IMG/VR virus record: IMGVR_UViG_3300026488_000021
Location: 18,023 to 82,022 of that record
Length of the DNA: 64,000 bases
Direction: 5' to 3' (one strand)
DNA from: a virus
In this document: positions 1 through 62,385 of the stretch, piece after piece
How the letters are laid out: each line of letters opens with the position of its first letter
Numbering within the stretch: the first letter of the stretch is position 1
Position numbers and translations under genes: made by a program
Notes under the pieces: model-generated
Seen by the model: the letters and a program-made list of their open reading frames with translations, nothing else
What the model was told of the DNA's origin: nothing
Databases searched by the model: none

Positions 1-3000
1 AAGTTGTTTTATTGAGATACTGAATTAGAAAAATTATTACAAGATAAAGATATAAGATGATTGCAAAATTATTATAAAAATCTAGACAAAAAAGCTGCAC
101 AATATGATTTGGAGAATGCTGATGCTGCTCTAACCACATTAAACAGTCATACATATTTCCTAGAAAAAGTAAAAGATAAAATATTTTTTGCAGATAAAAC
201 TACGGTTGAAAGGAATACAAAAAGAATTTATAAAGATTGATTTAGAGATTTTTCTAATTTATATGATATCCGGAATGAAAGTAAATTTAAATATTGAGAT
301 ATCCTAAACCAATTAAGAAAAGAGAATAAGACAGAAGAGTATAATATCTCTGAAATACTAAACCAGATAAATCAACAAAGATGAACAAATTATAAATTTG
401 TATGATTTGTTAATAAAGATACTGCTCTTTTACAGGATTCTGAATGAAATGTTTTTGTAGTAAATACCTGAATGTTCCAACAAGATATCGATACAATCAT
501 AAATTACTTTTCTGCTGATATCGGTTGAGAATATTGAATGAAAGATTTTACACATGCAAAAGAAATAACAAAAAACAAATTTTGAGAAGATATTGCTAAC
601 AATATTTCAGATGTAGAAAAAGTTGCATATATAGAAGAACAATATAAAGAATTAAAAAAGAGATTCGATGAGTGAAAATTGTGAGACTTAACAAAAGAGG
701 AGGTTCAAGAACTTATCAGTTGATTAGAGAAAGAAGCAGATAGTTTGATAGAAGATAACCTAATAAGATATACTGAATTAGTTCATAAGTTTCCTGAGTA
801 TATAACTGGGAAGTTAGAACATAGATTTTGAGAAAATGTATTATCTACATTTTGAATTAATAGTTATTTAGTAAATTTATTGTCTAACATTGAATTAATT
901 GAAGAATATTCACCTGAATTAGCTACTATGATTAAGAAAATTTTAAGGGTTAATGAAACAAAAGTAAAGGATTTACAGATAGATTTATTAAAAAAATTAA
1001 ACACTTTAATTACAGAAAATCCTAAAATTGTAGATGAAATAGAGCAATACGAACCTATGATGGTAGTATTAGATACATTACAAAAGAGAATAAAAAACTT
1101 AGAAACAGATAAATGAATAAAATTAGAGGATGAGTTTTATATGTATTATCAAAAAGAATTATTAAATTTAGATAATTATGAAGATAAACTGATAAAATTT
1201 AAGAATTACATAAACCAATATTTAGAGAATATTGGTAAATGAGATTATAAGATTACAGATGAACAAATTATGGTTCAGAGGAATTTGTTCGAAAGGAGTA
1301 AAAATGCATTTTCAAAAGAATGATATGTTTGATATGCGTTCTTAAAATACTGAATTGATACTTCTATTAGAGTCCCATTTAAATATAAAATTAAAACTGA
1401 CTTACAGGTAATAACAAGAGAATTTGTAAAAGCTTATCCAAAGTTGGATGAAAATATATTATATGATAAGATAATAGATATTTTTTCTAAAAACAAAAAC
1501 TTAATTGTATGATTTAATAATCTTAGATCAACATTTGAACCTTTTGATAAAGCATACCAAGAATCTGTTTGAAGCCAATATAGTTTGATAGATATATTAC
1601 TACAAAAAGCTTGAATGAATGAAAACAATATTAAGAGAATCAAAGGGGATTTATATTGAAAATCAGTATTTTGAGATAATAAATGGTATGAAGTAATTTG
1701 AATAATTAGAGACATTTATTATAAAACTTCTATGACATTATTTGGTGGTAAAGGTTTATCTATTGCTTTCCAGAACTTATATACAATTCCTGAATCATTA
1801 TCATTATATCAAATAAAAAATCCTTGACAATATAAGGAATTCTTAAATATATTAAATGAATTAAATAATCAAAAAATAAAAAAGAAATTAGAACAAGAAA
1901 TATTCTCGCCATTAGAAAATGAGATTATAAAATATTCTGAAAATAACAAACTTACTTGGGATATTAGGATAGCAAATAAATTCAATTTATGGTTATACAA
2001 AATTCTTAAAAAATTTAATTTAAATAGTTTAGCTGATGCTGTATTAAACAAGAAACTTGTTCAGCAATTGAATTGAGTTATATTTAATCCTGCTGGTGTG
2101 GTAGATGAATTAGCTAAAAAAACTTTTGTTAAAGACAAAATATTTGACTATGTTCTTAACGATGCTTGAATTGATATGAATGAATTGAAATTATTAGTTG
2201 ATAAAGCTAACAAATGAGATTTAGAAGCATTAGCTACAATTAATAAACTAATAGATGATGCGAATGAAAAAGCTTTGGTAGAATATACAAGATTGTATAA
2301 AGTTGCTTATCATGCAGGTTTAACTAGGAATTCGTTTTCTAGACATATCTTCTTAAATATATTCTCTTCTTGGTGAAGTAAAAAATTTGCGTCATATATG
2401 ACAGACATATTTATTACACCTATTAGAGATGCTGCTACAATTTATAGAATAACTTGAAGTACAAAAGCAGCAACAGCTAGTTTATTTTCATCACTAGTTA
2501 AATCAAAAAGATTACAAGCAATTCTAAAACAATTATATATGGCTTCATTTTTAATATACAATATCCATAAAGATACAGAAGTTGACTGAGATGAAGTAAA
2601 AGCTATAAAAGAAGCACTAATCCCATTCCAAGCATTTCAATCGTTTGTTTTAACAAGAGCTATTGGTAAAGCTATTGACTACTGACTTATAGCATACAAA
2701 GATGATGCTGATTTTTGAAAAACATTGTTATGGACTTTACACTGATTTTGACAAGCAGTATTTAGTAATTTTATGAAAGATGTAAAATACTTTTGACAAT
2801 TAGTGTGACAACCAGCTATATATTTAGCTATGTGAAAAGATGACCAAGCTATTTACACATTCTTTTATAATCTTGTAAATGCAGCAAATACTACATTATC
2901 GTATAATATGTTTGATCAATATAAATGAGTATATACAACAAGATTTGATAGTAAAACTAGATTGTGATTGTTAGAATGAGCCTTATGATTTCCATTAACA

Positions 3001-8150: not shown

Positions 8151-9055
8151 TGTATGGTAGATTAAAAGCACAAAACTTCTACAAAACTACATTAGCTTCA
8201 CAAATACCTGCCTGAGATCCTTCTGATACAACAGAGAAATCTTTCCAAGTATCAGAAGCTCCTGTTGGTAAAATGTGATGGTTAATTGTAGATTTTGTAA
8301 ATAATAAAAGAGAAATCATCTTTTATCATAATGTAAATTGAAATACAGTTTATTATTATGATTATAATAGACAATATCCGTCTTATACTCACGAGATTGG
8401 TAGTATAATACAAATGAATGATGTGGCTGAAATTATAAATCGGTTAAGTAATAATATAGATGATTTGTGATATATACAAAAGAAAACTTGATTAAACATA
8501 CTGGTAAGATGAGGTATTGTATTCTGAAAGAATTGACCAATTGAAATATGAGATACAGAAATTATATTAGATGATAATTCTACAAGTTATATTGTTGTTG
8601 ATTTTAATGACAATTTAATTAAAAAAGTAGATAGTATAGAGGTTAATCATATACCATTAGCAAGAGTTGTGACAGCTTGATGAAATATTATAACAATTAA
8701 TAATATTAAGTCTACTGTAAGATGATATATAACCTGGGATATGATAGATAAAAGCTGAAGTAAATTAAATGATATAGAAGATGTTGATGTTGATAGCGTC
8801 TCGGATTGAAAGGTGTTGATATATAATTGAGTATGAAATAAATGGCAAGCTGGCTGAAATGTTACATCTGAACATTTCACTGATTTAATTGATACGCCAG
8901 GTGGGTATTCCGGTGAATGATGAAAGATGTTATATGTAATGCCTGATGAAAGTTGAATATGATTCACTAAGGATGTTATTTTACAATGAGATGATTGAAA
9001 TATTTATCAATTAAAAGTTAATTCTGACTGATTATTAGAATTACATTCTTTATAA
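8150..9055 (+). CDS. Tail fibre/baseplate-related protein with shared C-terminal motif
   Basis: AQNFYKTTLAS..., IPLARVVTAGG; C-terminus ILQGDDGNIYQLKVNSDGLLELHSL. Confidence 0.7.
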
Positions 9056-13556: not shown

Positions 13557-13730
13557 GTTATATTATTAATTTATAAAAGCAATATAATAACCAGCTATAA
13601 GCTGGCGAAAAGAGATTAGAAGAAGAGAATGTGATTGTTGACACAGGTTTACTTTTGTATTCTTTCTTTAAATAGAAGGGTTCCTTGGATTAGCTAGTTA
13701 GATTAGAATGATAGAAACTTGATAGAAATA

Positions 13731-13804
13731 CGGAGCTGACGGGATTCGAACCCGCGACCTCCTGCGTGACAGGCAGGCGTTCTAGCCAGCTGAACTACAG
13801 CTCC
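13731..13804 (-). tRNA. tRNA-Asp(GTC), CCA not encoded
   Basis: GGAGCTG..TAGTTCAGCTGG..CCTGC-CTGTCAC-GCAGG..GTTCGAATCC..CAGCTCC-G cloverleaf. Confidence 0.95.
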
Positions 13805-13834
13805 ATAATGTAGGGATATACCCTACAAAATAAT

Positions 13835-15256: not shown

Positions 15257-15586
15257 TTATTTAAGTTTAGGTAAGTTAAAGAGGCATTCTAATACTACAT
15301 ATATCTCTCAGGCAGATAAAAATATGAGACTTACTACTTCAAATATTCGTTGGAATCAGTATATAATTATCATAAATGGTGTTATAAATACATGAATAAT
15401 TATTCATATTATGCTTAGTATTGTATATCTAATTAGTAACCATATATATTGTAGATATCTATTTTTTCAAGATAAATACATTGTATATGAATAACTCCCC
15501 CAAGACCACTCACTTGGTTTTAAGAAATCAGTCAATCAATATACAGTCCATCAATAATATGTAATTTTACACGATCTTTTAGACAT
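15257..15586 (-). CDS. Hypothetical membrane protein
   Basis: Hydrophobic stretch IWLLIRYTILSIIGIIIHVFITPFMIIYG. Confidence 0.5.
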
Positions 15587-16616: not shown

Positions 16617-17058
16617 AATCTTTTCTTTTAAAAACTAAATCTTCCCGAATAGGGGAAACAAACTTAACCTCAACAGCGGACGGTAGATAATTCCACCAAT
16701 TCTTTGGTTTTTTTCAAAATGTATCAGTAAATTTAGTATATCATGGCATTTTTAAGATAATGTTCCCGTTTCCGTCATACACATATCAAGTATACATATA
16801 TCTATCTCAATGAGTTCATTTTCATCTTTGTGCTAATTCTTGTATTAGTTTTTTTGTAATTTTGAGTTCCTTTACTCATTTTTTCCTCATTAACATACAT
16901 ACATAAGAAGCTAGTCATCACCTTGTTAAATTAGTACCAGCTACCAATTCATTTATTGTTTTGTCTCATATTATATATCTATTCCCTGTTGGTCATTTAA
17001 CCATCTTAATTGTTTTTCATACATTTTGTGCTAATATATCAATTGCTCTTACAAACAT
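16603..17058 (-). CDS. Hypothetical protein
   Basis: 151-aa ORF with TGA=Gly. Confidence 0.55.
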
Positions 17059-17790: not shown

Positions 17791-18470
17791 AATCAATTAT
17801 CTTTAAATCGTAAAGATGTTTCTTTTACATCCGTTCATAAGTATATAGAAACAAAATGGAATGGATTTCAATGCGCCCTTCATTTAGAAGAAAAGTCAGT
17901 AACTATATTTTGCGTAGTATTAGCTCTCCATCAGTCTGTCCATCTTCAATGCTCATATAAGGCATAAGTATCATATCAAACCTTTTTATATTCTATTCAC
18001 AATTTATCTAATACAGATAAGATTGGTATTCTTTTTAAATCTTCAATATCAGGTAAATCTATTTTTTCTCACTTAATAATCACTGGTTTATATTCTTTTT
18101 TTCTAGGGAAGCATTCCTCATAAATATCAGATAACTCAACATAAGGTTCAATCCTTTCAAAATCTACTACATATTTAGATGTATTTGCTATAAATAATAT
18201 GTTTTCTACTTCTTGTAAATCAAGATTATGTTTTTTTCTTATATTCTGTATATTTTCTTCTATCCACTTTTTGATTTCTTCAACTATTTCTTCCTGTGTT
18301 TTTTCTATTAACAAACAGGATAATCAATCTTGTTCGTATATTATATAATCTATTTGCTGTCATCGGTTAGATATTTTGTCATTATGTCTCTCTACTATTC
18401 TTTGTAATACCTTCTTAGGTGCTCTTATTAATTTATATTTCACACAATCTGGTAGCTCTGAAAAATACAT
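17784..18470 (-). CDS. Hypothetical protein with primase zinc-binding-domain-like C-terminus (no Cys)
   Basis: DLKRIPILSVLDKLGIEY...VTDFS.KG..GNPFHFV; resembles CHC2-type primase accessory domains. Confidence 0.45.
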
Positions 18471-18486
18471 TGCTCTATATTAGTAT

Positions 18487-19315: not shown

Positions 19316-19325
19316 CTTGTATTAA

Positions 19326-21560
19326 TTAATTTATAAACTCGTACATGAATGCTTGCCAAAGTCTATTTTTGTAATTTGCTAAGTATCTAAATAAATATTG
19401 AACAATCCATTCAGTTCTTTTATCTCTTTCTTTTAATAATCTGCTTATGTTTATAACAATATTTTGGTTTTCACTTGTATCATCTTTAACTAATTGTTTA
19501 ATAGCTTGAATAGCATGATGCTTACTTCCAAGTTCTTCTGGAATATATAAATCGATAGTCACCTCTTCACCAACATCTCATCTTATATTGATTGACTGTT
19601 CCTTTTTATTATACAAGATAGTTTTTACAAAAAACTCTTTTAATTCATCTTTACCCTCAATAATAGCTCTATGTATTTTTGATGTTTTCTCTATGATAGT
19701 TTCAAGTTCTTCCTTAGAGAATACTTTGTAAATATCATTAACAATCCTTAACCAAGCATAGTTATTATCTATTCTAGCTTCTCAATTATCAATCCAATCT
19801 TTATATTTAGATAAGTCAACATCTTTCACTTTATCCCACATATCTGCAAGAACAGATTTTCAATTAAGACTTTTTCTGATTTTCTTATAAGTCTCTTTAT
19901 CTGTATGTAATGATTTATCTAATTGAACATAGATAGATCTATTCATAACAGACATATACTTTGGTGCTTTCTCTCAACCAATAACAACAGGAGATAACAT
20001 ATTGTATGTAACAACACTTTGATCTGCTCTACCTTTCTTTGCATCTTTTTCATTATAAACTCATCTTAACATTTCTTCTATTTCAGATGAGATATTTCAA
20101 GTAAACTCATCAAAGAATATTGGCGCATAATCTCATAACTCATTTTGAACTGCAAATGTTCTTGTTCCTTCTAATGTCATTGCTCTTGGTTGAATTGTTA
20201 CATTTCCATCTTTTATTGGCGTAGGTGACAATCCCACAAGTTTCATCATCATTTGTATAGTTTCAGTTTTACCTGATTCAGTAAATCAGATAACCTGTAA
20301 GATTGGTGTTGGTATTCATTGCTGGAATAAATCCTTTTTAAGGAAAGCTCATAAGAACCATAGGAATATAATATAGTGATAAGGTTCTCTTAAATATCAC
20401 TTCATAATTTTCTTTGCTTCTTGTATAGTTATTTGTTCTCAAATAGTAGTAGCATATTTAGGAGCAAATACTTTAAATTCTTCATCTGTATCTTTATACA
20501 ACATCTGTCATCAATGGACAAATATTTTTTTTTCTAGATCAATTCAATTATGTTCTACAATTTTAAACTCAGGTATATTATCTTCATCTATCCATTGGTC
20601 TAGTGCTGAATAAAACATTTGAAATGTTTTTCAAGTCGTCATCATTCTTATTCATTGTCATCATAATCTTTTATTGAAATGGTCTGTATTCTGATAATAT
20701 GGGAAGATAATATCTCATTCGAAGTAGTAGTATCTTTTCTTAATATCAGTAATCACATTATTTAAGACATCGTAATTAGACTCATACCATCCTACCAGTT
20801 TCAACGGTTTATCAATAATTACACTTTCAACTTCTGCATCTCAATTTGTTTTAATTGAATATACTCCGTCTTTTCTAAATTCTATTTTATGTGTATCACT
20901 GATATTATACATATAATAGATATCTGTCTCTTCTATACCATCTATTCAGAATTGCTGTAATAACTTATTCAGTTTTGTAATACTTCATTTAGCAAGTCTA
21001 TACAAACAATCAAACACATTTCAAGATATATTGTCATCTTTATTTCTTATATCTAAGACAATTCCTAGTTCATTAGATACAAATACTTCTTGATTTTCTA
21101 TCTCATCAACAAACAATTTCGCACCTACATCCTCTGGTAAAATAAGAGAATTAACTTTCTCTTTAAGTTCTGCTAAATCTCAATTTAATTCTAAATCTTT
21201 ACTTATAAGTTGTAAAGCTTTCGATAATATTGACAAGTCTTTTATAGAAGGTTCTGTATTCTTTATTGTTAAGTCATACACTTCTTTCTTCCATTCTCAT
21301 ATTTTAATCTTCCCTCAATTATCAACCTGCCATCATATTAACTTCCACCGATTTGGTTTGATGTTTTTAGTTAACTTCTGTATCACAGTATCCTTATTAG
21401 AAATTATTGCCTTCTTATTTCAGAATTCTCAAACTACATTAAAGATAGGTAGATCTATTGCTTCCTTAGAAATCTTTCTAAGCAAAATTCCATTATCAAT
21501 GAAAGCATATTTTGCTTTATCTTTAATAGTAGTTTTTCAATCTTTATCTAAGTATTTCAT
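19326..21560 (-). CDS. Replicative primase-associated helicase (DUF927/SF3-like)
   Basis: 744 aa. PILQVIGFTESGKTET Walker A, PIFFDEF Walker B, LRGVYNEKDAKKGRAD. Confidence 0.75.
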
Positions 21561-21570
21561 AACTTAGCTG

Positions 21571-21891
21571 TTATTCAATAAATCATTCTCTATTTACATC
21601 TGTTATAATTCAAACATATTCAGCATCTGTATTTATTTTTTCTCAATTTTTAAGTCAATATACTCTTCATTGTTTGTCTCTTACTAAAATTACGGATTTT
21701 AAGTCACATACAGCAATACCATTCCTAAATGTATGTACTCAATAATTTGTCATTCTGTTCATGTCAAATCCTTTTGCAGCTTCTGTATATTCTTCTATAC
21801 TTGCTTTTATTATTTGTGGTTCATTATTTTTTTTATTTTCAAGCTTTTTAATCTTTTCATTCAGACTCTTCAAAGAAAGTTTCTCTGCCAT
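21571..21891 (-). CDS. Hypothetical protein
   Basis: MAEKLSLKSL... 106 aa. Confidence 0.55.
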
Positions 21892-22129
21892 TGTTTTTTT
21901 TGTTACCATATAAATAAGCAACTATTGGACTAAATCATCTTTTACTAATATCTAAAAACAGATCTGTCATCTTATCGTAAAACTCTATACCTTCTTTCTT
22001 TCAATACTTTCTAATACTCTCTTCTAATAAGAATTGTGGTTTACCAGCAAATCTAATTAGGATATTGTTTTCAGAATTCTTAAAATAAATTCAATTGTCA
22101 TCAACATATGTTTTAAAATAGATTTTCAT
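21848..22129 (-). CDS. Hypothetical protein
   Basis: MKIYFKTYVDDNG... 93 aa. Confidence 0.5.
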
Positions 22130-22139
22130 CTTGCTCTTG

Positions 22140-23489
22140 TTATATATTAAATAGTTCTTTAATATCTTCCTTCTTTTTATATTGATTTTTAATTTCTTCT
22201 GCAAGTGATTTTAATTGTATAGATTTTTCTATATCAATCAAGTAATTCTTATATTTTTTTATTTCTATGTCTCACCACATTTCTTTATAAGCTTTCATTC
22301 TTTCTCTTACTTGCGAGTATAAATTCCCATCCTGGAAATCATAATATTCTGGATTCTCTGAACCTCTTAGTATTCTTCCAATAGCTTGTTTTACTTGTGC
22401 CTTAAATTTTACGAACATAAAGTAAAAAGCTGTATCTAATGGAGGATGATCAAATCAAGTTCCTACTGACTGATAAGTTGCAACCATTACTCATTTTTTT
22501 TCTGTCAATTCTTTTAATATTTCTTCTCTTTTCTTTTTACTAACTTTTCAAGTATAAGCAGCAGCAGAGATTCAAAGTTTATTTAATGCAACTGCTATTC
22601 ACTCAGCTATATCAGTTCTATCTACAAATATTATTCACATATTTCTGTCTCATCTTTTCATTACATCTTCAACTAAGAATAAGAAGTGAGCTAATCTTTC
22701 TGTATCCCAATACATTGTATCGACCAAGTCCTGCCAGTCAACAGCATTATAAGATTTACTAAACTTATAATAATAAACCTCAGGATTTTTAGGTCGTATT
22801 CAACTGTCGATATATACATTATTAAACATTTTAAATAATGCTTCTGAGGGAAAATTATTTAACTCTGGGGTTCAAGTAAATCAATATACTTTGTCATACT
22901 TATATTGACAGAAGAAATGTATTCTGTTTCTTGTGGTAAACTGCATATGTATCTCATCTATTAGTACTTGTTTGTAAATACTATCTAGTGATAACTTCTC
23001 CCAATACATATCAAAGGATCTTGAAACAATAATAAGAACCTTAGGAGGATTAGTTCTACTAAACTTATCCTTATTAAATATTTCTACTTCAATTCACAAT
23101 CATTTAAACTTCTCGTATAATCATTTTGCAATCTCTGTCTTCGGTGCAATAACTAAGGTATGTCAAGAATATACCTTAGCTATCGCAGCCATCATATAAC
23201 TTTTCCCTGACCCCACACCTGATAAAAGAAGTCAATAATTATATTTCAATAATTTCTCAACTGCTTCTTTTTGTTTAGGTCTAAGAAAATCTGGTAGTTG
23301 TATACTATCTTTAGTTTCTTTTTCTATCCCAAATGTCCTTGGTAAAATATATGTATTGCTTCATCTTTTTTTTTCAAAAAGTTTAAGCTGTTTAGGTCGC
23401 GCTTCATTAAATGGATTTTGCTCTTTAAATATTAGCTCTTTTGGTAACTCAAAACTTAAAACTTTATCTCAGATTCTGTAATATTTCAT
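22140..23489 (-). CDS. SF2 DEAD/DEAH-box helicase (ResIII/UvsW-like)
   Basis: LRPKQ, GVGSGKS, DEIH, FTGTP, GTGFDHPPLD, QAIGRILR. Confidence 0.9.
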
Positions 23490-24202
23490 TCCTCTACATT
23501 AAGTTTAAATAATGGACATTTCTCTTTTAATTCACAGAAATGACACATTCTATTTTGTTTAGGTTCATAATCATCAAAGTCTTGTGAGTTTTGATATTCT
23601 ATAACTACTTTTTTAATTTTCTTTAAACAGTCTTCTTTTGTAAATTCTCTTTCAAACTCCTTTAAACTTGCACTACTTTTCTTTTCGAGAACTACATATC
23701 TAAACTTAGCTTTATTAAATCAAAAGTATTCCATAGCCAAATATGAGTATACTGTTGATTGTAAACTTTCATTCCAAATATCATCTCATTCATACCAATT
23801 CTTATTATTAGATGTTTTCCAGTCTATGATTAAGAGTTCTTGACTTTGTCAAGAATCTCTTATAGCAACCAAATCTGCTGTTCAAGTAATCCATGTATTC
23901 TCTATTTTTTTTACAAATGGAATTTCTGTATAGACAAAGTTATAGACATTGTCTATTTGTTGTCTATATTGAATAACTTTATCTGCAAGCTTGTCTATTA
24001 TTTTTTTAGTTTTCAAGTCTGGATTTATTTCTTTCGAATACCAGTCTATCATCTCTTTCTTACTTTCTGGATGTCTACTTACAAAGTGAATTAAATCTCA
24101 TAAAGCACTCACTTCTATTGGTATATTTACTTCTCAATATTTAAACTTATATGGACAAGTATTATAGATAGACAAGCTTGTAGTTCTTATTTGATTAGTC
24201 AT
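23456..24202 (-). CDS. Cas4/RecB-like PD-(D/E)XK exonuclease with 4-Cys (Fe-S) motif
   Basis: CPYKF..G..IH..TE..GTADLV..IIDWKT..Q..Y..CHFC.....C. Confidence 0.85.
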
Positions 24203-24773
24203 TACAATTATTAAATTTATAAATCTCATTTCAATACACATCTCGTCCTTTAGGTTTACATCTTGCAAATACCTCTATCTTCTTTAAATTAGGATACATA
24301 ATATCTAAGTTCTCTCTAACCTTATCAGGCTTTCTACTATGTTCTCTTATAGGCTCTGCTATGATTTGATTTATCATAGGTTTAGCAGGTTTAAATCTTC
24401 ATCCATTCTTTCACTTAATTCATATTAATACTAGTTCCACATTACTAGCTGTATAATATCAGGGATTAATCCTATAACTTCAATCTTTATTTATTTTTAC
24501 CCATGTAAAAGCTACAGTTTTATAAACAAATCACCAATACTTCATAAGTTCAATAGCAAAATCAAGTCTAGGACATGTAGCCCACATAAACATTATACAG
24601 TCTTTATTTGCCAGACTACTTATAACATTCTTAAAGTTTAGTAGTTCTTCATCTCTCATAAGAGGATAGTGTTTCATAGCTCATCCTCAAAACTTTATTT
24701 TATTTTTTCTTTCTCATCAAGTTTTCCTAGAATTATACCACCAAGGTGGATCAATATAAATCAAGTCATACAT
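24195..24773 (-). CDS. MT-A70 family N6-adenine methyltransferase
   Basis: YDLIYIDPPW, HYPLM, FMWAT, WGF.YKT, EHSRKPD, IEVFAR, G(CGA)DVYGNE. Confidence 0.92.
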
Positions 24774-25081
24774 TATTTAATCTCTTTTACTTGTAAATAA
24801 GCTGTCTCTTTTTCTTCTAAATATTCTTCTGCTCATTCTTTAACTAATGCTTTTGTATCGATTACAATTTTAACAGCATCTGGATATTTTCTCTTTACTT
24901 CTAATTCATCTATATCTGGTTTTAATTTATAAGAAAGTCTTACTACTTTCTTTACAATAAAATTGTCGACCTTTTCTTCTTCAATTCCTTCTTGAAGAAG
25001 CTCAGCTTCAAGTTGTTTTATTTCTTCTTGAAGCTGTTTCAATTGTTGTTTTTTTTCTACTAATAATTTTAGTTTATTCAT
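24773..25081 (-). CDS. Coiled-coil protein (Gp157/Gam-like position)
   Basis: Coiled coil plus IDTKALVK, between the annealase and the methylase. Confidence 0.45.
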
Positions 25082-25083
25082 AT

Positions 25084-25749
25084 CTATTTTTTATCAGATA
25101 AAGCTTTTCTCCATTCGTCTGCAATCTTCTTTAGTTCTTCTGTATTTACTTTTCATTTTTCTATTAACTGTTTTAGATTATTTTCTTTAGCCCATTGTTG
25201 TCTCACTATCTCAAACTCTTCAACTGTCTTAGGATTCTTAGTTGCAATATATTCTGCAAAGTCTGCTACATAATCTTTATCTGTATTATCAACAATTTTC
25301 TCAGCTTTCTTCTCAACTTCTTCAAATGTTTTTTCAATAGCTTCTTCCTCTTGTGGGAATTCGAAGATCTTAGCTACATATTTTAATGCATCTTTAAATG
25401 CTCTAGCCCTCAATCTTGATATCCCACCATACAATCCGTCACTAAGTAATGTTTTACTAGTAAGATTCAAAGCACCTAATCCTTCAAACACTCTTCAATC
25501 TTTTAATGTAATAACACAAGTTTGTAGCAAAGCCACAGCTGAATTAGAACTAGCCAATTTTTCGACTGGTTTAAATTCAACTCTTTCTAGGATATCTAAC
25601 TGTCTTGCTATATCTCTAATAAATTTTACATCAACATATTCTTGTCATTTAAAATCCTTCTTTAGAATATCAGTTGGTAGATATTCATTTATTGAATACT
25701 CTTTTCCTTCAATAATTACCTTAGTTGTAGTAGCTTTTTTTGTAGCCAT
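25084..25749 (-). CDS. Sak/Rad52-like ssDNA annealing protein
   Basis: KGQEYVDV...CVITL.DG..EGLG...ARAFKDALK; close to the Cas4-like exonuclease. Confidence 0.6.
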
Positions 25750-25760
25750 TATTATTTAGT

Positions 25761-26108
25761 TTAAGATTTAAAATATTTTTCATAAGCTTTTTTAGGAATT
25801 TTGTTCCCATATTTTTTCTTGTAATAATAATACATCTGATCTCAGATGTACTTAATAGCCTTGTGTTTAGGTGGTAGTTCTACTAAATTATCTTCTATAA
25901 GATAATCTTTAATATCAAGTCAAAGTTCTTCTACCATTTTTTTAATCCTCTTAAACACTTTGTCTGTAAAATACTTAACTCTTTTATCTTTAAGAACCTG
26001 ATAAGACAATCAGTACTTTCAATAAACCTCACCTAATGTCTTACCAAGTTCAATTACTTTCTTTTTTACATCTTTTGTAAGTGTATCTGTATCAACCTTT
26101 GTAAGCAT
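25761..26108 (-). CDS. Hypothetical protein, possible HTH regulator
   Basis: ELGKTLGEVYGKYGLSYQVL helix-turn-helix-like segment. Confidence 0.45.
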
Positions 26109-26130
26109 TCTTATTCTTATTATTTACAAT

Positions 26131-28478
26131 TTAAATAGTATCATTTATTAAATCTTTTATAATTATTTTTAACCAGGTTATATCTTCTCTTAAACAATCA
26201 TCATATTCTAGTTCATTCAATTTTAATATATCTAGAACATTTACTTCTTTACTATTCAAAAGACTTAATAATTTTTCTGGACAGTTAAATTTGTCTTTAT
26301 CCCGCTCTATAATTTGCTCTACATTAACCCTCATTTTAATTTAGTTATTAGATAAAAAAGTTTCCCAACTCTTTCATAAAAACTCTTTTCTCTTTTTGAG
26401 ATATATTTCATAATCTTTTTTATTACTAACCTCATACATTACAACATCATTCGCAAAGATGTTATAATATCTGTTCCAATCTCATCTAACTTTTATCATT
26501 TTTGCATCTACTTCTACTAAGTGTTGATAGTTTATCATCTCGATTTTACTTTATAATATAAATATTTTCACATATAAATAAAGGATTTTACAGCTGAACT
26601 AAACAATGTTTTTAAAGCTGTAAAGAACTTGTCTTGCTCTTGTATCCATTTTTTTTGATAATCTTTTCTTAAAGTGTAATCTATAAATGTCATTTTAATA
26701 ATTATTAGGAATTAAATTCTTTCAATCTCAATACTTACCTTTGGTATTTCATCCTTCTCAATTGGAAGTTCCTTTTCTATGAACTGATAAATTTTCTCGT
26801 TCAAATCATCTATGAACTGGTCTCTTATTTCTCTTAGTGTATAAGTGTTGTCATCAGGTCATTTATATACACCATCAGGCAACATATCATCATCAGTATA
26901 CTGACTTTGGAACCAATCCCAGTATTCATATAAGGCTTTTTGTAATCTTAATTCTGGTGTCATTTTTATTTTATAAAGAAATAAATAAAAGGTCAAACCA
27001 ACATACAAATAAGTCAAACTACACTTATTAATTGTCCTTGCTTAAATATCATATCGTCCTCATATCATATCCCAATTTTCATCAATAAATCTCCAATAAA
27101 TACACAGATTAGAAATCCAATTTCCATTAATATTATTTGTAGCATTTTTATTTAGTTATAGAATAAATACTTCTAAGTAGGAACCAATATTCCTTTTCTC
27201 AGTATAAACTTATGTATTCTTGTTTTAATTTTTCGTCTTCAGGATTTTGTTGTATTCTTTCTTTTAAATCTAACCTAGCTACGAATCTAGCTAGGTCCTC
27301 TGACAAACCTAATTCTTTTGCTCTTTCATATGTCATTTTAATTACTTTGAAAATCTAAAAGTATCTATATATCTTATTTTAACTTTAATCAGAAACCAGT
27401 TTTATGTAGCATCCTGTGTGTGTATCATTATTTATATGTAAAATATAATTTCATTTACTCTCTAATATTTTCTTTACATCTTCTTTTTTTAATTTCCTTA
27501 CTTCTTTAAGTAAAAAAGGTTCAAGCTCTCTAAGTTCTCATTTATATTTTATTTTAACTTTTTTAGAGAACTCCTTTCATAGAATATATGAGTTATACAA
27601 TTTTTTTAGTAACTCACATATAAAATTATAATTATATTCATAGTAAATGTAATTTATTCTTATTTTCTTAATTTTAGTATTAGGATTAAGTAGTCTAGAT
27701 ATAGTATGTAAATCTCAATCTTCGTTAATTAAATAAAAATCCGTTAGAGCAATTATACTATAATCCTTGTCATCTATAAGTAATGCCTGATCAAAGAAAC
27801 ATCAAAATTCATTAAATGCAGTTATATATTTTCCTATATCCATTTTTCAAATTTATTATGTTGTAAAAGTACTTTTATCTCTTCTCATGTTAAATATTTC
27901 TTTATTTTCTTTTCTAATTTATTTTTTAATTTTTTAAAGATATTTATTTTCATATCTAAAAAAGAAATCTCAGTAACACTAGATATTATTTGAGAAGTTC
28001 ATTCAAAGTCAACACCACTTAACCCTACACTTAAATCTAAAATAAATAATCTTTTTGTGTTTATTCTATCCAATTCTTGTATTAATTCATCATATTTATG
28101 TCTATATGTATCAACGTATGCTAAGAATATTTTAGCATATGTTTCTATTTCTCCTATATCTCGATCAACTTCATAAGTGGGTATATTTAATTTATATTCA
28201 GTTTCTTTAGGACTAACTAGCTTTAAACATCATTTATTTAAAGATAATCAACTACTTGAATAGTATCAATTATCCTCTTTAATTTTGTATGTTACAAAGT
28301 TTTCTTTTCTAAATAAAATATGTTTTTTACTACATATTCCTTGATAAGAATATCAATATTTTGTAAGTTCATAATCTATATAATCATTATATTTATCTAA
28401 TAGTTTAATTACGTCTGGAATTATATCCGTTTTTTTAATATAATAGTCTAATTTAAATATTAACTTCATATTACTCAT
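26131..28478 (-). other. Run of small early genes: 26131-26334, 26341-26538, 26532-26693, 26712-26963, 26966-27145 (2 TM), 27148-27336, 27385-27843, 27834-28478
   Basis: Tightly tiled ATG-started ORFs with TGA=Gly and A-rich leaders; no recognisable motifs. Confidence 0.6.
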
Positions 28479-28481
28479 TTT

Positions 28482-29105
28482 TTATTCTTTTAAATCAAAT
28501 AAAATTCCCCAATCTTTTTTACATTCTACCAAACATCTCTCTGCATCTGACTTATACATAAACATTATTCCATCAATAGTCATAGCTGTTTCTAGGATGA
28601 TCTCTAATTCATTAGTATCCTTATAATAGGCTACCCTATATCATCAATGATAAGTTCAATCTTCATCCCTATTAAGTCATAATAGAGCTTTATTCTTCCA
28701 AATCCATCTTTTAATTCTTGCTAATGCTTTCCTTTTTCTTAATTCTTTTTCTGCTTCCTCTTCTGTTAAAAAAACATTTCACATTTCTAATCTTCTTTCG
28801 AATCCGCTTCATAACAATCAATCAACATCAATTATCTCTCATCTATCATTAATATAAAAGTATGCCCCACGATTTTTTAATTCATAGATACTTTTGGGTG
28901 TCTCCTCCACCTCTTCTAACCATCAATTATATTCTAGTTCTGTAATCATCCTTTCTAATATTCATAATAAATGCTCATCAACAGTTTGAAAGGATGGAGT
29001 TGTGTTATCACTACATTCCTCAAAATATACATCTCAATCTTCATATACTATTATGTCTCAAGCTTTTGCTCCAGGCAAGTCCTTTAATAATTTAAATTTT
29101 TTCAT
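28482..29105 (-). CDS. Conserved phage hypothetical protein
   Basis: KFKLLKDLPGAKAG, WLEEVE, GNVFLTEEEAEKE. Confidence 0.65.
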
Positions 29106-29145
29106 TTGTTTATTTAATTAAGTTATAAAATTATTATTTTCTTAT

Positions 29146-29472
29146 CTAGGATTTCATATTAAATGGTCAAGTAATAATTATTTTTTCATCATCAAAGATT
29201 AATACTTCTCATTTTATGTATTCTGTTGGATTAAATTCATCGTCTAATCGTTGTCAAGTAGATGGTTGTTTATATAGTGTTAACAAGAATTGTCAATCAA
29301 TATTATATACTTTATATCTTTCAAGGTTAGCATCTTCTAGCAATGCATCGAAGACTCCTTGTGATATAAATTCATTATCCATTTTTTTTAACTGTTTAAT
29401 AATGTATACTTTCTTTATTAAGTCAAATTTAAAATAGTCAAGTAATTCAAGTAATGTTCCTTTGTGTAACAT
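29146..29472 (-). CDS. Hypothetical protein
   Basis: 108-aa ORF. Confidence 0.55.
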
Positions 29473-29476
29473 TAGT

Positions 29477-30046
29477 TTATTTTGTTAAAAAATTAAACAC
29501 ATAATTGAAGTGTCTCCATCAGTTCGGACAATGATATCTATACATTCCCGAACTAGCTTCTTCAGTACAATATCTACTCAAAGATGGTCTTCAGTTTAAG
29601 CTGTAGAAAAATCTAGCTCAACCTTTCCATCTCCAGGTATACCAGTATTTGGTATACCTTGACAACCAATCGTCTAGATTTTCTGATAGGTTTTTGAAAC
29701 CGTATACTTTAACTCACATACATTGACCTTTCCAACAGTGCTTGAATCCTCAACTTTCAGCCATAGCTATTCAAGCAGTAACTATAATACAATTTTCTAC
29801 ACTTCAAGTTATTATCCACTTCTTGCATTTATTGATAACGAGTGAAGATTCATAATCACTAAATCAAAGCTGCCTCATTCAGTTGTATAATTCAACTGCT
29901 CTTTCTCACCAGCAGTATCACCATACAACTTTTTTACATCCAAGCGGTTCGTAGTTGTATGCTTTAGTTTGAACCGCTCAGATAATGATTAATACAATTC
30001 CGCTAGCTACTAGTAGTGTAGCTAGCCAGGTTAGGTTCTTACTCAT
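29477..30046 (-). CDS. Exported/membrane-anchored lysozyme-like protein
   Basis: N-terminal hydrophobic segment LATLLVASGIVLIIIGA, GIAMAESGG motif, multiple Cys, SRYC...CPNGW. Confidence 0.55.
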
Positions 30047-30064
30047 GTTGTTTTTGTTTATTTT

Positions 30065-35775: not shown

Positions 35776-38700
35776 ATGTTAGCATTAAAACTACACGATT
35801 TAAAAAACTGAGTAATTTACCATCCACATCCTTTAAAGAACCCGTTAGCTTGGGACAAGGAGGATTTTGTATTTTATGATAAGAGAGTTGATAAATTACT
35901 AAAATGGAAGTTAAGATATCTTTATAATAATTGAAATCCTAAGATTGTAAAGAAAGAAATAGAAATATTAAATACTACGTATACATTGGAAGAGTTAGAA
36001 GTTCCTAAAAACATTCCTGAAGATATAAAAGTTATTTTACAAGAGTTTGAAGACACAAAAAAAGAGTATATAGCAGATGCTGTTAAAAAAAAACTATATG
36101 GAGATTTAGAATATACAATAGCGGTTGAACTTCTTATTAGTGAGAAAAAATGAATTAAATTAGAAAATGTTGATAAAAATAATTTGGAATATTTGTTTTC
36201 GCTACCGTTTAAAACTTTTTATAAGCAAGCTAAAAGATTGATTGATAGATGAGAAATTACTAATACAGATTTAGATAATATTGTTATTAAAAAAACATCT
36301 AAATATTATTATAATCCTAAACTACCAGTCCCTTATATACCACTATTAGCAAGAGAACATGTTTACACACCAGATTGAAATCCTTGGAATCCGAAACTTG
36401 GTCAGATATATTATTTGTATCATGAAGTTGAAAATACGGTTAACTTATTATTATCAAAAAGACAATATGGTAAAGGAGGGTATGTATCATTAAAATGATT
36501 TCAATATAGAATGGCTGATTGAACATTTAAAAAGGCTAAGGATATAAAAGTCTGAGATAAGTTATTAGCTTCTGATAAAAGGTGATATACTAACGTAGTT
36601 GGCATATCTCTCACAAAAGAACCTGTTTATAAAATTACTCTTTCTAACTGAGCTTATTATTATGCTACTACAGAACATCAACATGTAACTGCTGAGAATT
36701 ATAAAAATTGAAAGTTTGTTTGACCTTATAAAAATACAGTTGAACTTCAAAAATGAGACTTTATACCTTATATGCATAATATAGAGATTAAGTGAAAACA
36801 TGAGAATATTTATAAAATGAAATTATTGTGATATTGGTTGTGAGATTGAACAGTTGCTAGTGATAGTTATGTAAACACAATGTCTTTAGAAATTAGTTGC
36901 TGAACTAATCAAGCTTATATAGATAAGCTTATTCAATATGCTAAATATTTGTGATTAAAAGCAAGAGTGGAGTTAGATACTAGAAAACAAAATCATTGTG
37001 TACATATATACTGATTTGATAATATGAAAGATATTTATAAAAATAAAAGTTGAACTAAATATATTCCTAATTTTGTGTTTGGATTAGATAAAGAATGAAA
37101 GCGAGCTGTGATAGAATGATTATTATGAAGTGATTGATATATACAGATAAAACACAACTGAGTTGTTACAATAGAGTACTGTAGTAAATCTGAAGAACTT
37201 ATTAGAGGATTGCAAATATTGTTAGCAGATGTTTGAGTGTTGTCAAATATTAAAAGCAGATTTATGAAAACGAATTTTAATAAACATAAATGATGAGATA
37301 CCTATTGGTATTTGTATATTACAGATAGACAAAGTGTTTTAGATATATTTGAACACACAAATCTTGATCACAAGCTTAATTATGAAGATGCTTATAATAT
37401 TATTACAACAAACACTAAATTATCCAATTCTAAACATTCTATAATTCCTATGATTGCAAAAGAAGAACAGAAACAAGTAATATCGTGGGAAGAAAAAGTT
37501 AGATTAGGAATTAGAAATATTCAGTATAATTTCCAAAGACGGAAAGCTCCTTACTACTGATTAGAACACTGGTTAAAATATCATTGGGTTAGAGTAGAAA
37601 GTATTGAAAAGATAGGAGAGGAAGAAGTTATACATATACAAGTGGATTGAGATAATTTGTTATGGACAGGATGAGTTTTAACACATAATTCACTTCTTAC
37701 TACCTTAATTGCATTTCAGCATTTAATGATGGATTGAGAGAATTCTATACTATATTTGGTTGAGGCTGAAAATAAAATACTTCCAATCATGCAATATTTT
37801 GAAAGAGGTTTAAAGAAATATAAGCAGGCTTGAATTTTTTCTATGTCAAAAAATGATTATACTATAACTTGTAAAATAACTGGTAATGTATTAAAGTTTA
37901 TGTCAGCATGAAGTAGGACTGGTGTTAAAGGATATTCTTTTAAAAAGGTAATAATTGATGAAGCTGATTACATAAGTGACGATGTATTCTTTTCTTTAAT
38001 TCCAATATTTAATAAACCTGGTGGTAAATTTTATGCGGTATCAACAGTAGCGTTTGATGTTAAATGAGGTTCAACTTGGTTTTATGATTTGGCTAAAGAT
38101 ATAGAACTAGGATTAAATAAAATGATTTGAGACATTCCATCACAAGCACTAACAATCACTCTGTATGAAGATGAGTGAGTTACAAAGCAACAATTACAGA
38201 TGTTTGAGATAATCCGTAAAAGAGATCCAGATCGTTTTTTGTGAGATTACATGTGTATTAGGTGAGATCAAGATACATTGTGGGATAAAAATAAATTGAT
38301 TAGCCCTATTAGTTCAGATGAATATAAAAAGAAGAATGTAATAAATGTCTTAATTTCTCTGGATCCAGCTAAAAAATATGACTATGGTGGATTGGTTGTT
38401 AGTTATATTATTGAAGAAGACTGAAAAAATTATATAGTTCCAGTAGTAGCTGATGAGTTAGAAAAGATGGAATATTATCAACAAATAGAGATTGTTAAAA
38501 AATATGTAGATTTGGCTTTAATAAATCAATTCCCAGTTAATGTTATTATAGACGAAACTGGTGTTTGAGCTGCTGTATCAGAAATGTTAAAGCAACAAAT
38601 ACCAAATGCACACTTAATTAAATTGATGTATACCGCAGGGAATAATATTACAGAAAAAAATGGAGCTATTTATGTTCCTAAGAAAGAATTAGTTGATACA

Positions 38701-45796: not shown

Positions 45797-47173
45797 ATGA
45801 CAATACAAGAATATTATAATAGACTTGCTAATATGTCAGGAGAAGAGTTGTATAAAAAAATCAGACAAAAATATTGAGATGTATCCTGATTTGCGTTAGC
45901 ATATAATAAAGCTTTAAATAATTATGCAGGAGCAGATAAAGATAAATATAGAGATTTGATAAGTAAGATTGAAGCAAAAGTTGGAGAATATATGAAGGCT
46001 CAACAAAATAAAAATGTTCAGAAAAATAATACTCAGTCCATAAGTGTTGATAACTTGCCTACGAAGGTGGATTTTAATACAAAGATAAATAAACCTAAAT
46101 TACCAAAAGAACCTACTCCGTATGACCTTTGATTCCAGTCTTGATTTAATTCAGCTTTATGACAATTTTCGTCTAAACTGTCTGAGTTACAAAAAGCTAC
46201 AAATAAAGCATTAGAAAGTTTTAAGAATAAATTATGATTAACTGATAAGCAATTATTTAACTTAAAAAATAGATTTGATGTATTTAATCAAAAAGTAAAT
46301 CTGATTGATAATATTATAAAAAGTAAAGATGAAGTATATCAAAACTTATTTAAATGATTGAAAGAGAATCTAGATACATTATCAGAGAAATATGGTGATA
46401 CATATGCGAAGATATGAGAAAGATTAAATAATTATGAAAAGTTGATGTGAGATACATTTAATAAAATGAAAGAAAGACTTAATAAAATTTGAGAGAACTA
46501 TAAGAAAATATTACAATTTAATCAAGCTGCCGCTGGTAGCGCAGCAGAAAAGCAATTAAGATGAGCTACTGGGAAGTGAGCACAATTAAGGGTTGCTAAT
46601 TATTTGCAAGAATTCGCACAGAAATGAGATACAGAACTAGCAAAATTACAGGTGCAGTTAGCACAACAAGCAAATGCATTAGATCAAGAATTCTTGAGAC
46701 TTAAGAAACTTATTATAAATGATAAAAATTTAACTGATAGAGAAAAAGTTAAGGTGTTAGATGATTTACAAAATAGATATAACAATTTATTAAATTTACA
46801 AGCTAAGTGGTGAATTAGTAAAGTAGACGCATATGCTGAACCTAGGCAAGAACAATTAGCAAAAGAAGAGAGAGATGTTGAAGCAATACAAGCACAAAAA
46901 TTACAAAATGTGTTACAAAAATTAAATTATGAGTGGGCTACAAATCCTAAAAATAGGGATATAATAATAAATAAAATTATTTCACAATTAAAGGTTCCAA
47001 TACCAAAAGAATACTTACAAAAACTTAAAACAGCAAAGGATTTTAATGAGGCTTTGTTAGAATTAAAGAATTATGTAAACAAAAATACCCAAGTACGAAG
47101 TGCATTAGATAAACTATTACAATATAGTAAGACAAAAAATAATTTACAATCTAATCAATGAGCCTCCAGCTAA
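45797..47173 (+). CDS. Probable DNA ejection / internal virion protein
   Basis: 458 aa, Q/K/A-rich coiled coil, AAEKQLRGATGKG; follows the nozzle gene. Confidence 0.6.
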
Positions 47174-48534: not shown

Positions 48535-50151
48535 ATGGCAAGAAATAAATGAATAATACCATTTTCTTGAAACTTTGAGCTACAAGTAGCAGCTCCATTA
48601 GATGCTAGGCAATATGTTGAAACAAAGGCAGACTTAACTAATGCTGCTACTTGGGAAGCTTTAGATGGGAATAGTTATGCTTACAAATGAATGATAGTAG
48701 CAGTCTACAATGATACGCCAGAAAACAATGGTGTATATGTTTTAGTTTGAGATGATGTGACTGATCCTGCTAGTTGGATTTCTGCTAAATGAGATGTAGA
48801 TAAAGACTTATCTAATGTAGATGATAATACAGTATTAAATAAAGTAAAGAACGTTGATTGAGATTGAAGCTGACTTGACGCTGATAAAGTTGATTGAAGG
48901 GATGTAGATGATACAAAAACAGATAATACTGTACTATGGACGGCTAAAAAAATATGAGATGAACTTAATAAAAAGGTAGACAAAGAAGAATGAAAATGAT
49001 TGTCTACGAATGACTTCACTGATACTTATAAGAATAAATTAGACTGAATTGAAGATTGAGCTGAAAAAAATGTACAATCTGATTGGAATCAAACAGATAA
49101 TACAATGGATGATTATATTAAGAATAAACCAGATTTATCTATTTATGAAGAGAAAGTAAATAAAGTATCGTCTTGGCAGTCTACTCCAGACAATACTCAT
49201 TATCCTAGCGAGAAATTGGTAAAAGACAATTTAGATGATTTGCAAGACAATAAAGCTGATAAAATAACCTCGTGAACGGAGAATAATTTTGTCTCAATAG
49301 ATAATACGTGAAACATAAAAGACAGTTGAAAAAAAGCTGATGATTTTGCAACTGCAACACATACACACAATTGGACAGAAGTAAATAAGACTTGAAGCAA
49401 ATTATTTGACATTGAAGATGTACCAGCTTATACAGGGAATGCGGGTAAAGTATTAGCTGTTAATAGTACAGAAGATTGATTAGAATGGGTGGATTGATGA
49501 GGTTGATGATGAGGTTGATGATGAGGTTGATGATGAGGTTGATGAGGTGGTTGATGAACTATACCTAATAATCCATATGCAATATATAAACTTAATTGAG
49601 ATTTAACAGACAGTAGTTGAAATTGAAGAGATTTAACATTGTATATTTGAACTCCAACTTATAAGACAGAGTGAGATATTACATATGTTGACACAAGAAG
49701 TAATAAAATTGCTACAAGAATGGATGGTGGTACCTTACTAAACCAATGGACCTTTTATGTTAAATTAAGAGATGTTGGAACAAGTACTCGGCAAACCATC
49801 TTTGGTTGAGAGACTAATGATAATATTGCAGTTTCAATATATAAAAGTAGTAATAAATATGTTATTAACTGATATAAATCTGGACACTGAACTCAATATT
49901 CCTATGCAAGTGATGTTAATGTAGATTGAAATTGGCACAAATTAGCAATTAGTTATAACAATTGAACTATCAAAATATATATGGATTGACAATTTAAAGT
50001 CTCTAAGAGTTGAACTTTGGACTTTAACTGTAATACATTTTTTTCTGATGAATATAATAGTGCGAATGAGCCTGCATCTTGAGAATTTGATGAAATAATT
50101 GTATACGATAGAGTATTAACAGATAGTGAAGCAAAAAGTTTAACAAGTTAA
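48535..50151 (+). CDS. Fibre protein with poly-Gly linker and C-terminal LamG/ConA-like domain
   Basis: PLDAR, DGDGSGLDAD, KVDKEEGKGLSTNDFT, NVQSDW, G21, YKLNGD..DSSGNG, DGNWH, DEIIVYDRVLT. Confidence 0.85.
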
Positions 50152-60663: not shown

Positions 60664-62385
60664 ATGACAATACAATACATAAACGAAGCTGATATAGTAA
60701 GAACTACTTGAAGAAATAAAATAAATTCAAATTTCATTGATTTAGATAATAGTAAGGCTGAAAAGAATTTGTCAAATGTTGATGATAGTATAATTTTAGA
60801 AAAATTAAAAAATGTTGATTGAGATGGAAGTTGACTTGATGCTGATTTATTAGACTGATTTGATAGTAATGATTTTGAAAAAGTAGTAAATAAAGTTTCT
60901 TCTTGGCAAACTACACCAGATGATATTCATTATCCATCTGAAAAACTAGTTAAGGATAGTTTAGATTTAAAAGCAGATGACAACGAAGTAGTTCATTTGA
61001 CTTGAACTGAAACTATAACAGGTAGAAAAACATTTAACAATGATGTAGATATAAATTGAGATGTAAATATTGATTGAAATGTAAATATAAAATGAAATCT
61101 TAATTATGTAGATACAGAAAATTTACAAGTAGAAGATAAAGTTATTATTTTAGATAAAGGCTGAAGCAATGCAGATTGAAGCTGATTAGAAGTAGAAGAA
61201 AATTGAAGTATAGTTGCAAGTCTAAAATACAATAAATGAGATAATAGATGGAATGATTGAGTTGATAACCTAGCAAGAGTTGGAGAAATAACAGACTTAG
61301 ACAACAACAAGGCAAATAAAGACTTATCAAATGTAAGTAATACAGATTTCCTTAATAAAATTAAAGCAGTAGATTGAAGTTGAAGTTGAATAGATGCTGA
61401 CTTGTTAGATTGAAAACAAGCTAGTGATTTTGCTTTATCCTCTCATACTCACAATTGGTGAGATATAAGTAAGAGTTGAAGTAAATTGTCTGATATAGAA
61501 GATGTACAAGCTTACACTTGACAAGCTTGAAAATTATTAGCTGTTAAGAATACAGAAGATTGAACTGAATGGGTACCAGTTGAAGCTGTAAGTTGAACTG
61601 ATGAACTTGTAAAAGCAGACAGTTGAGATAGCACAGCTGGTTATTTATCTGACAAGGTTGATTGAAGTACTCTAGAAGTAGATACATCTACCCATAAGAT
61701 TAAAGTAAAAGATTGAGTATTTGCAACTGATAGTAATGTTGTGCATAAAACTTGAGATGAAACTATAAGTTGAGTAAAAACATTTTCTGGTACTATAAAT
61801 TTAACTGGTGAATTTGATTGGCAAGCATCTAAAAACTTTAAATTAAAAGGAAGTTGAGAATGGAGTTTTGACTTCTCAGATGATGATGGGAATGATTATT
61901 TACAGGTACGGGCACCTAATATATGAACTATTTTTGCAGTAAGGAATAATTGAAGACTTTGATTTAAAGTAAGTAATCCTAAAATAAGTTTTGCGTTTTG
62001 AGATAATGATACTGGATTAAATTATGTTAGTGATTGAGAGTTTGATTTTTATTCAAATAATTCTGCAAAATTACAAATTAAACCCTCATATATATGAATA
62101 CAAGTAAAAACAGTCTTATATGATAATCCTATTTATCTAAGGAGTAGTTGAGATGATAATCATATTATTTGATTTGCTAGTTGGATAGATTGACCTGAAA
62201 TTAGATGATGCCAAGGAGTATGAATAGCAAAAAATTGTTGAGGATATACAAGAATAGCACAATTTAAGGGTAATGATATGGAACTTTTACAAAATTGATG
62301 ATGAATTATATTAAGAGACTGAAATTGAAATAGATATAAACTATCTGTAAACTCAAATTGAGAACTTGAATTAAATTCAATTTAG
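60664..62385 (+). CDS. Tail fibre with shared C-terminal motif
   Basis: DGDGSGLDADLLDG twice, VHLTGTETITG.KTF, GDNDTG; C-terminus GGGIILRDGNGNRYKLSVNSNGELELNSI. Confidence 0.85.

Follow-up and report, generated by a model that had tools for sequence, protein, structure and literature searches.

A tailed phage genome in which CGA and CGG probably encode tryptophan in addition to TGA encoding glycine

The closest described system is that of the Absconditabacteria, for which Codetta predicted that CGA and CGG are translated as Trp together with UGA as Gly (Shulgina & Eddy 2021, eLife, PMC8629427). The same CGA/CGG to Trp change was recovered again by a k-mer method (bioRxiv 10.64898/2026.04.02.715157). 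The tRNA-UCG and tRNA-CCG of these bacteria have the identity elements of Trp (G73 and the absence of A20), and a tRNA-GCG remains for CGU and CGC (PMC8629427). Hence, the computational precedent cited in the original prediction, which had proposed this doubly recoded code for the phage studied here, does exist. For the Gracilibacteria, CGG to Trp was predicted in only some members (PMC8629427). Changes of a rare Arg codon at low GC, as in the phage, are also known from Anaerococcus and a clade of RFN20 Bacilli (CGG to Trp) and from Peptacetobacter (CGG to Gln) (PMC8629427), but in these bacteria CGG alone has changed and TGA is a stop, whereas in the phage CGA is Trp-like too and TGA is Gly. 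On the virus side, Liu et al. 2023 (mBio, PMC10746230) described code-25 phages and prophages from Absconditabacteria and Gracilibacteria, and most of the predicted Absconditabacteria phages are, like the present phage, dense in TGA and unreadable in table 11. The phages of that study come from human and animal microbiomes and are linked to their hosts by CRISPR spacers, whereas the host of our phage, probably from a hydrothermal vent, is deduced from its code alone. That work contains no mention of CGA, CGG or a sense-codon change, and our literature searches found no description of a CGA/CGG sense-codon change in phages. The code is thus known for bacteria and code-25 phages have been published, and a phage with CGA and CGG as Trp would be a further case of a known code.

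The DNA analyzed (the window) is a stretch of 64,000 nucleotides, bases 18023-82022 of one linear IMG/VR virus contig of 82,022 bp with a CheckV completeness of 75% and a GC content of 27.8%. The best DNA match among public runs was a hydrothermal-vent metagenome, which is probably the source sample, and related strains were present in four runs of a second study. There was no RNA run among those listed as containing the phage sequence, and none of the 40 variants listed of about 1,840 in the sequencing runs fell on a CGA or CGG codon. The genome encodes portals, tail and fibre proteins and two terminases, one of which is interrupted by an intein that contains a LAGLIDADG endonuclease; these identify a tailed phage. 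Also encoded are a holin, a serine recombinase, a helicase and an MT-A70 methyltransferase. Searches of viral contigs with the portal, the helicase, a capsid alignment and one further alignment (A7) yielded no close relatives, the matches to the helicase alignment being all standard-code at 22-28% identity. Neither the capsid nor a 744-aa protein had a relative among GenBank phages, and the portal gave only two distinct distant matches there.

The first recoding, TGA as Gly, is solid, since the glycines of the FGGGA motif of the MT-A70 protein are encoded by TGA and the TGA codons of the phage face GGN or TGA in related contigs. In the codon exchange matrix, Gly stood opposite Gly in 690 of 1130 Gly-class pairs. 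When ORFs of at least 80 aa were counted, 106 were found in table 25 versus 23 in table 11, and TGA makes up 4.5% of the codons in credible genes (1129 of 25,161, counted over the whole 82 kb). The capsid and scaffold-type genes are nearly free of reassigned codons (window 42008-43333, 41116-41982 and 6225-7232, all on the plus strand, and genome 7930-9069 in the left arm). None of the 32 Gly codons of the major capsid gene is TGA, and the gene is free of CGA and CGG, whereas in the next gene 43 of 64 are TGA; the capsid homologues of two related contigs have 0 of 33 (L012) and 9 of 33 (L014).

The code that very probably applies to the phage, judged from its sequence, is TGA as Gly, CGA and CGG as Trp, and AGA, AGG, CGT and CGC as Arg, that is, the code of the Absconditabacteria type. 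Both systems share the same three reassigned codons, AGA as the main Arg codon and a low GC content (0.26-0.38 in Absconditabacteria, PMC8629427; 28% in the phage). In the set of 25,161 codons we counted 16 CGA, 22 CGG, 11 CGT and 1 CGC, together with 610 AGA, 115 AGG and 265 TGG. CGA and CGG therefore occur at 6.4 and 8.7 per 10,000 codons, as compared to mostly <37 and <7 in Absconditabacteria (PMC8629427). CGG is the commonest CGN codon despite the 28% GC, which would be odd for an Arg codon and is expected if CGG arises from TGG. Under the proposed code, about 12.5% of the Trp positions (38/303) would be spelled CGA or CGG. The evidence also differs in kind, because that for the Absconditabacteria is a genome-wide Pfam tally and that for the phage comes from codons that alternate among related phages and from a few protein-family columns. 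Of the 38 CGA/CGG codons in credible genes, whose positions are collected in Table 1 with those of the genes discussed below, about half had usable homologues for the column tests. All six further codons named in the original prediction (those starting at 28161, 29248, 31449, 48376, 49789 and 58742) are present, as is the GNHD[CGT] motif given there for Arg, which belongs to a Metallophos_2-like gene (window 12005).

Table 1. Positions of the genes and CGA/CGG codons considered in this work (window coordinates, except those preceded by L001)
Feature	Position	Strand	Observation
MT-A70 adenine methyltransferase gene	24195..24773	-	Pfam PF05063, E 4e-20
CGA, MT-A70 residue 177	24243..24245	-	near-invariant Trp of G-W..(W)GNE motif
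Serine recombinase, two CGA codons	L001:1-885 (left arm)	-	
Lysin-like protein, three CGG codons (126, 208, 332)	L001:12474-13556		
CGG, 1637-aa protein	271..273	+	opposite TAT (Tyr) in L012
CGG, 301-aa fibre-cluster protein	8441..8443	+	opposite TAT in L010 and L015
CGG, 573-aa fibre/baseplate protein	61909..61911	+	TCT in L015; non-conserved
CGA, 458-aa protein	47096..47098	+	non-conserved column (AAT, CAA in relatives)
CGA, helicase residue 31	23397..23399	-	close homologues W/Y, one R
CGA, helicase residue 232	22794..22796	-	close homologues W5/R2, never G; ambiguous
CGA, 228-aa early protein residue 221	17808..17810	-	homologues R x4, W x1
CGA, 228-aa early protein residue 36	18363..18365	-	non-conserved (T, T, S, A, K)
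CGA, intein LAGLIDADG part, large terminase	37102..37104	+	non-conserved (A, A, Q, G, R, V, T)
CGG, fibre protein Laminin_G_3 domain	49789..49791	+	His in single PDB homologue
CGA in hydrophobic stretch PFMIIIYGFQ[CGA]IFEVVSLIFL	15347..15349	-	no homologues
CGG	16645..16647	-	no homologue in Pfam/PHROGs
Further CGA/CGG codons	starts 21348, 26302, 31365, 37540, 48043		no homologue in Pfam/PHROGs
Further CGA/CGG codons	starts 58853, 59772, 63545		no homologue in Pfam/PHROGs
CGA, CGA, CGG, CGG, CGG	starts 28161, 29248, 31449, 48376, 58742		no alignable homologue (Pfam, PHROGs)
tRNA-Asp(GTC)	13730..13805	-	sole tRNA gene in 82-kb genome

The original prediction started from the C-terminal motif of the MT-A70 protein, EVFARCKPKG[CGA]DVYGNE, and the presence of this CGA (TCG on the plus strand) was confirmed from the sequence. 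The gene contains 11 in-frame TGA read as Gly, and three of its invariant Trp columns (residues 11, 64 and 91) are TGG, the fourth being the CGA. A search of 1.84 billion representative proteins retrieved 10,320 homologues, and we tallied 150 diverse ones among the best. In these best 150 of 10,320, the column of residue 177 held W 129 times, F 6, L 2, N and K once each, and R and Y never, with G before it (122) and D..GNE after it. Similarly, in a 25-row alignment, in which many of the homologues are clearly from standard-code, GC-rich organisms, the residue was W in 22 of 24. The PDB alignment of MT-A70 ends upstream of the codon. A second protein, the serine recombinase, was compared with about 30 standard-code Chloroflexota homologues, leaving out the locus of one genome (G042). 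The column of CGA61 was Y15 F6 M2 L2 R2 H1 W1 A1 and that of CGA279, in a Y.G...[Y/W] motif, was Y14 W6 G3 S2 R1 T1, so that both are about 70% Y, F or W with at most two R; three PDB recombinases have F, Y and M at the CGA61 site. Therefore, three CGA codons of the phage occupy columns that consist largely of Trp or other aromatic residues and have little or no Arg. As to the other CGA columns, two are ambiguous and three non-conserved, and close homologues alternate between W and R. These results can be set against the standard reading, according to which CGA and CGG are rare Arg codons, as table 25 as defined has them, and the Trp-like columns are Trp-to-Arg substitutions or chance. A few columns, described below, do align with Arg, but the lack of any R among the approximately 140 residues of the MT-A70 column and its rarity in both recombinase columns speak against this explanation, which we consider very improbable also in view of the codon exchanges that follow.

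The lysin-like protein gave access to related phages at the DNA level. The search with this protein matched seven IMG/VR and nine metagenome loci, all 16 with in-frame TGA, and some (L010 and L012-L015) have further genes in common with the phage; there was no tRNA in the related loci of the sixteen-row codon table. To compare codons, CGA and CGG were masked as X before alignment. The holin codon CGG28 stood opposite TGG in three relatives, and the lysin-like CGG208 opposite TGG in seven, with TCA or TCT in a distant group. The lysin-like CGG126 faced CGG five times, TGG three times and CGA once; in database translations, this column resembled an invariant Arg. In addition, the lysin alignment includes columns, such as NS[W] and [W]RY, where a TGG of the phage corresponds to CGA in six relatives or in one. 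At the DNA level, CGG thus behaves as Trp in the holin and at the lysin-like positions 126 and 208, and two more CGG stand opposite TAT. A sequencing error was rejected because CGG is common to five contigs at one column. Over all aligned pairs, the CGA and CGG codons of the relatives were found opposite phage TGG in 16 of 198 pairs versus 2 of 412 opposite phage Arg codons (odds ratio 18, Fisher 8e-7, the pairs being phylogenetically dependent). The Arg-class codons of the phage faced Arg 180 times, Lys 82 times and TGG in 0 of the 412 pairs, and its CGA and CGG never faced Lys or Gly codons. Under the standard reading, the TGG/CGG/CGA alternation in single columns would need repeated radical swaps of Trp and Arg at conserved sites.

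Seven of the loci (L003-L009, e.g. IMGVR_UViG_3300028914_000087) belong to a second group of TGA-recoded phages of 31-36% GC that has only the lysin-like gene in common with the phage. In this group CGA is more frequent than TGG (48 TGG, 79 CGA and 43 CGG in the long ORFs of L003), and CGT and CGC are common. It looks like a further-advanced stage of the same reassignment.

A similar picture was obtained at the protein level, where TGA had been translated as Trp in the database entries related to the lysin-like protein, the helicase and a 228-aa protein, as indicated by a W wherever the phage has Gly. A W in these homologues means TGG or TGA, and for this reason we sorted the columns by the codon of the phage itself. 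Opposite phage AGA or AGG, 311 homologue residues comprised R 170, K 71 and W 0; opposite TGA, 348 residues comprised W 227, G 47 and R 0; opposite TGG, 120 residues comprised W 103, R 4 and G 0; and opposite CGA or CGG, 57 residues comprised W 18, R 21, Y 13, K at most 1 and G 0. The CGA/CGG columns show neither the Arg signature (K) nor the Gly signature (G) and have a mix of R and W like that of the TGG columns. The contrast between W 0 of 311 opposite true Arg codons and 18 of 57 opposite CGA/CGG is a further point against the standard reading. AGA, AGG, CGU and CGC still behave as Arg, with CGT and CGC too few to be separated; the contexts of CGT are basic, the numbers (11 and 1) being small. 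The public protein predictions of the relatives (P0003-P0014, P0166-P0172 and P0177-P0181) have Trp at each TGA-encoded Gly, and what would be CGA/CGG-encoded Trp appears in them as Arg.

Since several columns are rich in Tyr (those of the recombinase, and the TAT opposite four CGG), we also considered that CGA and CGG might stand for another aromatic residue, namely Tyr. A crude BLOSUM sum, in which every column was counted whether favourable or adverse, gave W 17.5, Y 17.6 and R -10.0 for CGG and W 4.4, Y 8.8 and R -1.0 for CGA. The sum thus favours Y or W over R and puts Y at or above W, with the two close, so that Trp was preferred because of the TGG/CGA/CGG alternation and the MT-A70 column. 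The latter is devoid of Tyr, and TGG occupies the columns of the holin and the lysin; both points contradict the Tyr reading. Another way to obtain Trp, C-to-U editing of CGG into UGG, was rejected because it would also turn CGA into UGA and hence into Gly, and the CGA columns are aromatic and never Gly. Taken together, Tyr and editing are the least probable of the explanations that we weighed. On the basis of several independent columns and two exchange statistics, we believe that Trp for CGA and CGG, on top of Gly for TGA, is the most plausible reading. The original prediction had counted a single position as strongly diagnostic; the support extends past MT-A70 to the recombinase columns and to the codon and protein exchanges.

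Four columns were Arg-like or ambiguous, namely lysin-like CGG332, helicase CGA232, CGG256 of the terminase TerL1 and the intein CGA, and four further CGA/CGG columns were merely non-conserved. The only firmly aligned Arg-like column is that of CGG332, directly before LEPNRP, where the phage codon faces TAT in four near relatives and AGA, CGC or CGT in six distant ones; since the nearest relatives all have Tyr, Trp is still plausible there. Helicase CGA232 faces R in about 38 distant standard-code homologues (a subfamily with a "TRP" motif) and E in about 36. In the close homologues of the helicase and of the 228-aa protein, R probably stands for CGA or CGG and W for TGG. For TerL1 CGG256, the letter chosen to represent the codon decides whether R/N or a conserved F/W stands opposite it, which shows that translating CGA and CGG as R biases the alignments; a PDB search with TerL1 gave no match. 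The intein CGA faces R or E of PI-SceI depending on a gap, and its column is not conserved in seven Chloroflexota LAGLIDADG motifs. The large terminase (window 35776-38982, plus strand) is split by this intein of approximately 400 aa with a LAGLIDADG_3 endonuclease (Pfam). Of the 33 Gly codons of the intein, 27 are TGA, a heavier use than in the exteins, and the intein is thus no recent arrival from a standard-code genome; it also carries two CGA/CGG codons. The fibre protein with a Laminin_G_3 domain has a paralogue, both of 538 aa (window 48535-50151, plus strand, and genome 9298-10911), and the two carry an identical CGG and context, VKLRDVGTST[CGG]QTIFGGETND. In PDB Kelch matches, the CGG position was outside the aligned part.

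The two Arg-like columns in the lysin-like protein and the helicase mean that to read all CGA and CGG as Trp with no ambiguity would be an overstatement. They could be explained by mixed decoding, in which most CGA and CGG would be Trp and some would be Arg, or both, through a competing host tRNA-Arg, a heterogeneity that might be tolerated at about 38 sites. Besides the true Arg codons opposite CGG332 and the R of the distant helicase subfamily, such ambiguity is left possible by PMC8629427 itself. Nevertheless, these same columns are aromatic or alternate between W and R in the nearest relatives (TAT x4; W5/R2), no CGA/CGG column has the R/K pattern of Arg columns, and the intein, in which two CGA/CGG codons occur, shows full adaptation to TGA as Gly. 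For these reasons we regard mixed decoding as unlikely, although less so than a plain Arg reading, and retain Trp as the meaning of CGA and CGG.

PHROGs contained no family for ten CGA/CGG-bearing proteins. The codon in the hydrophobic stretch (Table 1) is consistent with Trp. A classifier based on neighbour composition in Trp versus Arg contexts, which is a weak one, gave an AUC of 0.57 (p = 0.09 against Arg). The two codons were unevenly distributed. CGA occurs 11 times in the 6,876 codons of the early minus-strand block (window approximately 13800-33300) versus 5 times in the 18,285 codons of the plus-strand late blocks, and CGG 4 times in the former versus 18 in the latter (Fisher 0.003 for the CGA/CGG asymmetry). 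It is conceivable, though doubtful, that this, together with the near absence of reassigned codons from the capsid and scaffold genes, reflects a module-specific use of reassigned codons with a bearing on expression or host range and not mere mosaic ancestry. Such use could be caused by a temporal tuning to the host pools of tRNA-UCG and tRNA-CCG, or by selection for core genes that remain readable in both codes.

Another 14 CGA/CGG codons, in short ORFs of a GC-rich region (window 33015-34922), were set aside. At 33400-33800 and 34400-34900, the GC reaches 60% versus 28% in the genome, with no credible ORF, and Rfam at E up to 0.1 contained no family for these stretches; the region is probably mostly RNA or otherwise non-coding. 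Immediately downstream of the GC-rich leader there is an ORF of 100 codons (33018-33317, minus strand) with neither TGA nor TGG and with three CGA/CGG in its final 30 codons (...LI[CGG]ASNYEEAQDLAA[CGA]KAGMCVPCR[CGA]AGS). Its 3' end is 43% GC, and a Pfam search gave no family.

The phage differs from the Absconditabacteria in being a virus without a tRNA-UCG, tRNA-CCG or tRNA-Gly(UCA) of its own, the search for a tRNA for CGA, CGG or TGA having covered the whole 82-kb genome. As tRNA-Asp is its entire set, decoding would have to rely on the tRNAs of the host. Around the tRNA-Asp gene (window 13334-14000), depth rises to 220-960 in four runs of the other study, and loose ends accumulate at 13738 and 13784; it is likely that tRNA-Asp genes of other organisms were placed on that of the phage. 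We propose that the CGA, CGG and TGA codons of the phage would be decoded by host tRNAs, and that the decoders of CGA and CGG would be the tRNA-UCG and tRNA-CCG with predicted Trp identity known from the host clade. The host would accordingly be a bacterium of the Absconditabacterales (SR1) or of a close lineage with the same code. The Trp-like CGA points to the Absconditabacterales, as PMC8629427 has only CGG to Trp for some Gracilibacteria. The code put forward in the original prediction is supported, and its narrowing of the host to SR1 draws on the code only, CGG to Trp being predicted in some Gracilibacteria as well. Searches of bacterial genome contigs found no relative with the lysin alignment and, with MT-A70, a standard-code Anaerolineaceae MAG contig of 51% GC as the only match.

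These results have consequences for annotation. Table 11 shatters the genome, and NCBI table 25 (Candidate Division SR1 and Gracilibacteria), whose TGA as Gly opens the long ORFs of the phage, keeps CGA and CGG as Arg and so writes about 38 Trp-like positions as Arg. At the CGA/CGG sites, both tables would mistranslate about 1 residue in 650, and either table 25 or a translation with TGA as Trp misplaces residues at conserved Trp, for example in the MT-A70 motif. For host prediction, a Trp-like CGA as well as CGG would indicate the Absconditabacterales, which is narrower than code 25. The TGG/CGG/CGA alternation in phages provides independent evolutionary support for a reassignment that has so far been computational (PMC8629427; bioRxiv 10.64898/2026.04.02.715157). 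Finally, the code would act as a barrier to host switching, as a move to a standard-code host would mean about 38 Trp-to-Arg changes and about 1,100 premature stops.
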